A stretch of 4,890 nt of DNA from IMG/VR virus record IMGVR_UViG_2606217107_000013; one strand, 5' to 3'. Positions 56 through 151 of the stretch are shown piece by piece. The notes under the pieces are model-generated. The model saw nothing but the letters and a program-made list of their open reading frames with translations, was not told the origin of the DNA and did no database searches. The DNA comes from a virus (taxonomy: Duplodnaviria > Heunggongvirae > Uroviricota > Caudoviricetes). Each line of letters opens with the position of its first letter. Within the stretch, counting starts at the first letter, position 1. A program made the translations under genes and the position numbers.

Positions 56-93
56 GAAATTCCGAAAAAATTCATATTAAAATTCGGAATTTC
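56..93. repeat. Perfect 11-bp inverted repeat GAAATTCCGAA (56-66) / TTCGGAATTTC (83-93) around a 16-nt AT-rich spacer; possible operator or protein-binding palindrome upstream of the adhesin gene
   Basis: Arms are exact reverse complements, read directly from the sequence. No T-run follows on either strand, so a terminator role is unlikely. The window changes from GC-balanced to AT-rich at about this point. Confidence 0.5.
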
Positions 94-122
94 TTCAGGA
101 GTAAGCTCATGAGAGCGGCGAG

Positions 123-151
123 ACATCAGATTTTCTTTATATATCTGATGT
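123..151. repeat. 9-bp inverted repeat ACATCAGAT (123-131) / ATCTGATGT (143-151) with 11-nt spacer, abutting the candidate -35 of the adhesin promoter; possible operator
   Basis: Exact reverse-complement arms read from the sequence. The right arm ends at the first base of the TTGAAC -35 hexamer. The stem is AT-rich, so a weak hairpin. Confidence 0.4.

Follow-up and report, generated by a model that had tools for sequence, protein, structure and literature searches.

The eib cassette of a 933W-like Escherichia coli prophage carries two exact inverted repeats, here called IR1 and IR2, in the control region of its adhesin gene, and these are tentatively read as operator-like sites for regulators of the NarL/FixJ type, namely the host protein RcsB, the cassette-encoded protein ORF-156, or both. 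As judged from the sequence, that reading falls somewhat short of an even chance. The cassette lies in the window, the whole stretch of 4,890 nt that was analyzed, from the IMG/VR virus record IMGVR_UViG_2606217107_000013, and it consists of genes for an adhesin with a YadA-type anchor, for ORF-156, and for ORF-60. Both palindromes would act at the level of DNA, within a cis-regulatory region of ~150 bp belonging to prophage eib genes. Which protein would occupy the sites, and whether it would activate or repress, we infer from the repeats, their conservation, a motif match, and the fold of ORF-156.

IR1 is composed of a left arm, GAAATTCCGAA (56–66), an AT-rich spacer of 16 nt (67–82) that includes the −10-like hexamer CATATT (73–78), and a right arm, TTCGGAATTTC (83–93), a lineage-specific inverted copy that supplies an extra TTCGGAA half-site. 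IR2 has the left arm ACATCAGAT (123–131, with the core TCAG at 126–129), the 11-nt spacer TTTCTTTATAT (132–142), and the right arm ATCTGATGT (143–151, with the core CTGA at 145–148). An earlier note on this DNA had described an 11-bp repeat at 56–93 (N16) and a 9-bp repeat at 123–151 (N11), and both are indeed exact, with arms of 11 and 9 nt that are 100% complementary. They are the only perfect inverted repeats in the 4,890 nt with arms of at least 9 nt and loops of at most 20 nt. Dinucleotide shuffles of positions 1–250 produced one or more such repeats in 2.7% of trials and two or more in 0.3%, and shuffles of the whole window gave a mean of 0.18. Hairpin energies have z-scores of −3.5 to −4.5, whether folded as RNA or DNA and on either strand. 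The two repeats are nonrandom.

IR1 has been on record for some time. The GenBank entry for P-EibA (AF151091; Sandt & Hill 2000), in which the match to the window starts at 3722, marks a stem_loop at 3777–3814 that equals window 56–93 exactly. The entries for P-EibC, P-EibD, and P-EibE (AF151674, AF151675, and AF151676) mark an upstream stem_loop of the form TAAATTTA-N13-TAAATTTA, which spans −126 to −98 or −131 to −103 relative to the ATG. The stem_loop features of these four records carry no stated function, and the records leave IR2 unannotated. Since IR1 was annotated in 2000 and the element is of a known kind, the present analysis is a modest refinement and not the description of a new kind of element.

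Loci carrying eib were taken from E. coli genomes, phage records, IMG/VR, and metagenomes, and the ~150–230 nt before the start codon were aligned. The main alignment holds 19 distinct upstream sequences in groups A to F, which share about 70–75% identity with one another, and the distant groups G and H were added to it. The window belongs to group A, a near-identical set of 14 haplotypes in 32 copies with 13 variable sites in 150 nt. Both repeats lie inside a region of ~150 bp before the adhesin gene that is kept among diverged eib loci. The exact palindromes have been lost in most orthologous loci, which keep one arm of IR1 and a 4–5-bp core of IR2, so the exact forms are not required and it is parts of them that are under constraint. 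The proposal in the earlier note that the palindromes are operators survives in part: the conserved portion of IR1 fits the operator type of the NarL/FixJ family, but the palindromes as such are missing from most orthologues, an outcome that the note itself had listed as refuting.

The most conserved upstream block is box 1, TAAGGAAATTCCGA (52–65), a 14-mer resembling an RcsB or RcsAB box that holds most of the IR1 left arm. Its TCC at 61–63 is invariant in all 19 sequences, and groups C, D, and E have TAAGAnnnnTCCTA at this place. Only group A and the group-D member L148 keep the right arm of IR1 in inverted orientation, and group B keeps it in part; in L148, IR1 extends to 12 bp with three compensatory differences from group A. 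A second box, here the degenerate remnant CAGGAGTAAGCTCA (96–109), has an invariant or nearly invariant GGA at 98–100. It takes the form T(A/C)(G/A)GAATA(T/C)CCTnA in groups C to F and is degenerate in groups A and B. Group C has an inverted repeat that pairs box 1 with box 2 instead (GATATTTCCTAAAAA / TTTTTAGGAATATC). These arrangements suggest that IR1 may be a conserved RcsB/RcsAB-type box (52–65) joined by a lineage-specific, inverted extra half-site (83–93). Box 1 would be partnered in other eib lineages by the second box ~43 bp downstream; in the lineage of the window, that second box would have decayed and been replaced by a nearer inverted copy, giving the exact 11-bp repeat.

The comparison with Rcs sites is based on published patterns. 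The RcsB homodimer box is TN(G/A)GAN4TC(T/C)NA, with the lower-affinity form TN(G/A)GAN4(A/C)CTNA (PMC7913699); the RcsAB box is TaAGaa|tatTCctA (Wehland & Bernhard, as quoted in PMC3950696); and the half-site contacted by RcsB is TTAGGAA (PMC5829831). Both arms of IR1 show TTCGGAA, which is close to that half-site. Groups C, D, and E fit the high-affinity pattern perfectly at box 1, which stands there at −142 to −145 from the ATG and across the diverged groups at −142 to −146. The low-affinity pattern is matched perfectly by box 2 (−99 to −101) in those three groups and in group F, which has box 2 alone. In group A, including the window, box 1 matches the low-affinity form on the minus strand of 52–65 (TCGGAATTTCCTTA). 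The same patterns occur 0.048 times per 200 nt in ~1 Mb of unrelated viral DNA and 0.013 times per 200 nt in eib loci outside the upstream region. Box 1 resembles the RcsB/RcsAB box (TaAGaatatTCctA) in its length of 14 bp, its pseudo-palindromic form, and the positions that are specified, and in groups C, D, and E the match is perfect and fixed in position. It is unlike that box in that the window has only the low-affinity form and in that the half-sites of IR1 are 17 nt apart and face outward (TCCGA...TCGGA), whereas the canonical spacing is 4 nt. The RcsB-box reading takes its weight from position and from conservation among orthologues; in the window alone it is weak.

IR2 would be a promoter-proximal dyad with the core TCAG-N15-CTGA, overlapping or abutting the −35 region. 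That core is conserved and the outer base pairs vary. The spacer TTTTCTTTAT is conserved to the same degree as the arms, with T133, T136, T137, A139, and T140 invariant. Position 146 is C in 29 of the 32 group-A copies (T146C), which leaves IR2 imperfect in most close relatives; the substitution breaks the palindrome and retains the half-site form TC(T/C)NA. Recognition of IR2 as DNA is favored because the spacer is as conserved as the arms and because T146C keeps the half-site form but breaks the pairing. Group E has a 7-bp version, GTGTCAG/CTGACAC compared with ACATCAG/CTGATGT, in which three outer pairs have changed on both sides (ACA/TGT to GTG/CAC), and in L148 a G-C pair has become T-A. 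In eibC and eibE, which belong to the expressed set of strain ECOR-9, a 6-nt deletion runs across the region of the IR2 right arm. Readings of IR2 and of the TTTGTATACA element described below as sites for IHF, FNR, LexA, NsrR, Lrp, PhoP, or sigma-E were considered, and by comparison of consensus sequences none appears to fit. A search of IMG/VR with the 15-nt pattern ATCAGATTTTCTTYA returned mostly chance matches, with true eib loci accounting for 3 of 120.

Further copies of these motifs are found farther upstream. The IR2 arms recur in a shorter form, TCATCAGATTGTGCTGATGT (CATCAG-N6-CTGATG), which lies outside the window at L002:5865–5884, 332 nt before the eib ATG, and a second GTATACAAAT lies at −241. 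Both are present in all group-A loci, and they could be a distal operator or the relic of a duplication. An element of the form TCA(G/T)AAATTACAGTGTAAGCAGATGTGA, ~258 nt before the eib ATG, is common to groups C, D, and F (L007, L147, L148, L150, and L146).

The relation of the repeats to the promoter depends on which of three candidate starts is used. The earlier note had placed the adhesin promoter at TTGAAC/GATAAT. This sigma-70 candidate, Pb (151–156 and 174–179, plus strand, 17-nt spacing), scores 9 of 12, the best here, and is the only consensus-like promoter nearby, and IR2 does end at its −35 hexamer as described, T151 being the first base of TTGAAC. As the adhesin promoter, Pb does not hold up well: the hexamers are found in groups A and D only and are not conserved in groups B, C, E, and F, and the predicted start at ~186 would fall inside the Shine–Dalgarno sequence (185–188), which is itself among the conserved upstream blocks. 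A weaker candidate, Pa, combines CTGATG (145–150), which the IR2 right arm overlaps, with TATACA (168–173); by reading of the alignment, both hexamers are conserved in all groups with a spacing of 15–17 nt. Its candidate weak −10 falls within the conserved palindrome TTTGTATACA(G/A)A (164–175), which is invariant in 18 of the 19 sequences, stands at a fixed −30 from the ATG in all groups, and provides the only pairing in the RNAalifold consensus. The third candidate, Pup, is the conserved hexamer within the IR1 loop (73–78), with a predicted start near 85. A74, A76, T77, and T78 are invariant, an nAnAnT hexamer stands at 73–78 in all groups, and in groups A, C, D, and E a position weight matrix scan places a −10-like hexamer at ~−124 relative to the ATG. 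Under Pa or Pb, IR2 would overlap or abut the −35 and IR1 would lie ~90–130 bp upstream, as expected of operator or activator sites; under Pup, IR2 would fall within a leader of ~110 nt.

The second candidate for the binding protein is encoded just downstream of the adhesin gene. The ORF-156-type gene (1407–1937, plus strand) specifies 176 aa, with a degenerate receiver-like domain followed by a LuxR/GerE-type helix–turn–helix, and its product is a candidate binder of the repeats or partner of RcsB. It belongs to a family restricted to E. coli prophages, phrog_6585, of unknown function and unassigned in both Pfam and NCBIfam. An AlphaFold2 model based on 21 homologues (pLDDT 84, pTM 0.79) has a receiver-like domain of four strands and then four helices that resemble the GerE/LuxR-type helix–turn–helix. 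Foldseek against the PDB returned NarL/FixJ-type regulators only, the top match being RcsB on the rprA promoter with a probability of 0.99. ORF-156 is therefore confidently modeled as a NarL/FixJ (LuxR-type) fold with a degenerate receiver, and the atypical LuxR-type regulator of 176 aa that the earlier note had proposed is upheld at the level of the predicted fold. In the receiver, D52 at the end of beta3 is invariant, and T7/N9 stand in place of the acidic pair that follows beta1. The recognition helix, KTVNTFLY..MAKNG, is nearly invariant in the family, and K130 and T134 align opposite K180 and S184 of RcsB, which contact bases (PMC5829831). ORF-156 may bind the sites described here, as its fold and recognition helix suggest.

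RcsA, BglJ, and MatA are small two-domain auxiliary regulators of RcsB that have a receiver without the full phospho-acceptor pocket and a LuxR-type helix–turn–helix (PMC3950696). The ORF-156 model appears to share this architecture. It differs in being shorter (156–176 aa, with four beta-strands) and restricted to prophages, and a partnership with RcsB is putative. Host RcsB and the ORF-156 protein of the cassette, which resembles an RcsB-family auxiliary regulator, would be the likely binders, singly or together.

The mat/ecp adhesin operon of E. coli, which codes for the common pilus, offers in its distal regulatory element a model for how such sites may work. There the RcsB box overlaps the TTCCT box of EcpR and is required for RcsB-dependent activation, and EcpR, RcsB, and IHF relieve repression by H-NS (PMC13593695). 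The K-12 operon carries TAAGACTATTCCTAA followed by TTCCT-N17-TTCCT. In the eib locus, a nearly identical 15-mer stands upstream of an adhesin gene (TAAGACAAATCCTAA in group D and TAAGGAAATTCCGAA in the window), the group-D version differing from that of K-12 at 3 of 15 positions. The two loci are also alike in encoding a small LuxR-type regulator and in having an AT-rich promoter region. By analogy, RcsB and an EcpR-like partner acting on an almost identical box could relieve H-NS silencing of eib. The likeness has limits. The TTCCT boxes of mat/ecp are direct repeats 17 nt apart, whereas the eib boxes are inverted and separated by 31 bp in the window or ~43 bp in other groups; the window has TTCCG (60–64) and an inverted TTCGG (83–87) and no direct TTCCT repeat of the kind that EcpR (MatA) uses. 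MatA and ORF-156 show no detectable similarity beyond an N-terminal stretch of 21 residues (E=0.11), and the gene for ORF-156 follows that for the adhesin, with a terminator in between, in contrast to a regulator encoded first in its operon.

Several results count against operator-like sites for RcsB or ORF-156. The high-affinity RcsB pattern has no match anywhere in the window, box 1 (TAAGGAAATTCCGA) failing at position 5, and the single match to the low-affinity pattern in 4,890 nt, against 0.48 expected, is not significant by itself. The motif has a low information content. Group B fits neither pattern exactly, being off by one or two bases, and the half-sites of IR2 are 13 nt apart and not 4, and are not kept in group D. 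The compensatory changes in both repeats are equally expected of hairpins. The position of the sites relative to the promoter differs among the candidate transcription starts. On the protein side, Pfam at E≤10 gave no GerE match for 21 ORF-156 homologues, a profile search of PDB sequences found weak LuxR-family matches at E of about 0.07, and hhalign with K-12 RcsB aligned the recognition helices weakly, at E=0.017. Lastly, homologues of ORF-156 also occur without eib and without an RcsB-type box nearby, so the pairing of eib with ORF-156 is not obligatory.

The repeats might instead work as hairpins, an alternative that is unlikely on balance and that ranks second to the operator-like reading. 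If transcription starts upstream, for example from the hexamer at 73–78 with a start near 85, then IR2 and part of IR1 would fold within the ~110-nt leader; alternatively, IR1 could form a DNA cruciform around the −10 in its loop. Such a structure could affect mRNA stability, the translation of an upstream ORF, or coupling to eib translation. The depositors of the GenBank records marked a stem_loop at the equivalent place before eibA, C, D, and E even though the sequences differ, and the folds are stable relative to shuffles. Paired cells make up ~80% of those in the 19 sequences, compared with 27–48% for slid controls; that control is biased because the structure came from one sequence in the alignment. 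Both sides have changed in 7 of the 20 pairs (five in IR1 and two in IR2). The compensated 12-bp IR1 of L148 and the 7-bp IR2 of group E also speak for pairing, and the −10-like hexamer keeps its position inside the IR1 loop. Against these points, the RNAalifold consensus contains neither hairpin, groups C, E, and F and most of D have lost the IR1 right arm or have it in degraded form, the IR2 loop is conserved as much as its stem, and the expressed eibC and eibE do without the IR2 right-arm region. T146C makes an A.C mismatch on the plus strand in those 29 of 32 copies and the L147 variant is tolerated on the plus strand only, so neither strand suits all variants. This disagreement and the RNAalifold result are what place the hairpins second. 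No Rfam family applies: a permissive search of window 1–2300 gave DicF as its best match, at 14.6 bits and E=8.6 compared with a gathering score of 48, and a search of the full tfa–eib interval of a related locus gave nothing significant.

The upstream ORF that a hairpin might influence is a hydrophobic reading frame of 25 codons (109–186, plus strand) with a strong Shine–Dalgarno sequence, AGGAG (98–102). It spans IR2 and ends 10 nt before the eib ATG. Read from the alignment, its ATG is present in groups A, C, E, and F and absent in B and D. In A and E the reading frame is the same, with a common C-terminal motif C..CIQII; past IR2, group C continues in another frame. The ORF is probably not a conserved gene: a leader peptide or small toxin was considered and rejected because groups B and D lack the ORF and C has it frame-shifted, which also detracts from a leader hairpin acting through its translation.

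Another account, also improbable, is that the exact repeats are mutational by-products with no function of their own. Template switching, by quasi-palindrome correction, would have perfected AT-rich repeats that a young lineage still retains, and only the underlying boxes would matter. In keeping with this, exactness is limited to the one close lineage of group A, the exact IR2 is a minority allele, and other lineages have different repeats at the same place. By reading of the alignment, G56 and G64 are the departures of box 1 from the cross-group consensus, and each has its counterpart in the right arm, as expected of template switching; the exactness of IR1 may therefore be such a by-product. 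Against a pure by-product, at least four diverged lineages have some inverted repeat at this position, a recurrence that hints at its being maintained. Within group A, the arms of IR1 have one variable site in 22 nt and its 16-nt loop has three, too few for significance.

A role as terminators or insulators, blocking read-through from the phage late (tail-fiber) operon into the adhesin gene, is the least probable of the readings considered. The repeats do sit between the late tail-fiber-assembly gene and the moron, and a T-rich stretch follows IR2 after 8 nt. The earlier note had judged that neither repeat is followed by a T-run and that they look less like terminators than like operators, and this is borne out as regards terminators: the stems are AT-rich, the loops are 11–16 nt long, no T-run is adjacent, and the terminator scan calls neither repeat, yet it calls a genuine intrinsic terminator after eib (1352–1368). 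In addition, the tfa–eib interval of related loci has three clear intrinsic terminators, and all are on the minus strand.

That interval (L002:5389–6000, ~610 nt before window position 1, and L001:3400–3990) also contains tandem repeat units of ~170–177 nt, with, for example, ATACAGAATTTTCGTA present twice and AAAAAACnGGGGAG... present twice, and no Rfam match. The three minus-strand terminators and the tandem units together suggest duplicated small transcription units on the minus strand. The PhiR5_2 annotation places two small ORFs on the minus strand there; they look spurious.

The suggestion in the earlier note that the moron might have been joined at IR1 by recombination or insertion fares poorly and is considered very unlikely. 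Homology common to all eib groups does start ~5–10 nt upstream of IR1, and GC content falls from ~50% (1–55) to ~30% (56–200), although the 100-nt sliding profile declines only gently, from 0.39 to 0.33. In this lineage, however, ~800 bp run unbroken to the tfa gene at 95–98% identity in three prophage backgrounds (933W-like and lambda-like), groups A and B are homologous upstream of IR1, and no direct repeats or integrase-type sites flank it.

An extension of the operator-like reading is that the eib cassette is a self-contained mobile module of adhesin and regulator. ORF-156 would then be a prophage-encoded and hitherto unrecognized partner of RcsB, in the class of RcsA, BglJ, and MatA, that binds the inverted boxes at ~52–109, and possibly IR2, alone or with RcsB, and switches on a promoter silenced by H-NS. 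This is offered as a speculative and rather doubtful scheme. If it is true, envelope-stress or surface sensing by the Rcs system would be linked to the induction of Eib in static culture.

Eib proteins, EibG among them, bind immunoglobulin Fc and drive the chain-like adherence of Shiga toxin–producing E. coli that lack the enterocyte-effacement locus (LEE). Their expression depends strongly on conditions and is higher in static, microaerobic, stationary-phase cultures at 37 °C. The searchable literature defines no eib cis-element or direct regulator beyond the trans-acting IbrAB island and yielded no experimental link between Rcs and eib, and the papers on Eib expression mention neither promoter nor regulators. 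The pGEM plasmid used to complement an eibG deletion carried 168 bp of the eibG upstream region (PMC13534694). As a sequence feature, operator-like dyads in a promoter region are ordinary; the testable lead is the proposed link of Rcs and ORF-156 to Eib expression. If the boxes are RcsB/LuxR-type operators, the regulation of eib becomes directly testable and the ORF-156 family (phrog_6585) gains a function.

The assignment of the adhesin to the Eib family comes from the surrounding sequence as well as from the protein. The gene (197–1318, plus strand) encodes a trimeric autotransporter adhesin of 373 aa with a Pfam YadA_anchor match (E=4e-16) and is homologous to eibA, C, D, and E. Positions 1–200 recur upstream of YadA-family genes at 96–99% identity in 27 of 5,426 complete E. 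coli genomes, with more distant matches in six further E. coli genomes and often with multiple copies per genome, and they are also present in the partial prophage record P-EibA from strain ECOR-9. This recurrence identifies the adhesin gene as one for an Eib-family immunoglobulin-binding protein. Over its full length, the window shares 97% identity with Escherichia phage GER2 and 96% with PhiR5_2. Over the compared region 260–1000, close relatives align to the window at 1–263 and then only from ~1000, so the passenger domain is mosaic and swapped among otherwise near-identical cassettes.

Homologues of ORF-156 outside eib cassettes are found in other E. coli prophages (IMG/VR L151–L161 and L164–L173), with 59% identity, or 95% over residues 25–157. 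They directly follow a terminator after a gene of the tail-fiber region, and the second set (L164–L173) is apparently truncated at the N terminus. Near these eib-less homologues there is no high-affinity box and no site like box 1, and isolated low-affinity matches occur at background frequency. A scan of GTDB with ORF-156 found only one contig of 601 nt, NZ_JPLE01000137.1 (L174), labeled Xanthomonas pisi DSM 18956. The fragment of ORF-156 that it encodes has 95% identity to the E. coli prophage protein, and the contig is probably E. coli contamination.

Downstream of ORF-156, the window continues with an ORF-60-type gene and then, from 2239, with virion and tail genes of the 933W type. Between ORF-60 and the first of these virion genes lies a strong terminator-like hairpin on the minus strand (2064–2082), GGGGAGCATGTTGCTCCCC followed by TTTTTTT, with no obvious minus-strand gene upstream of it.

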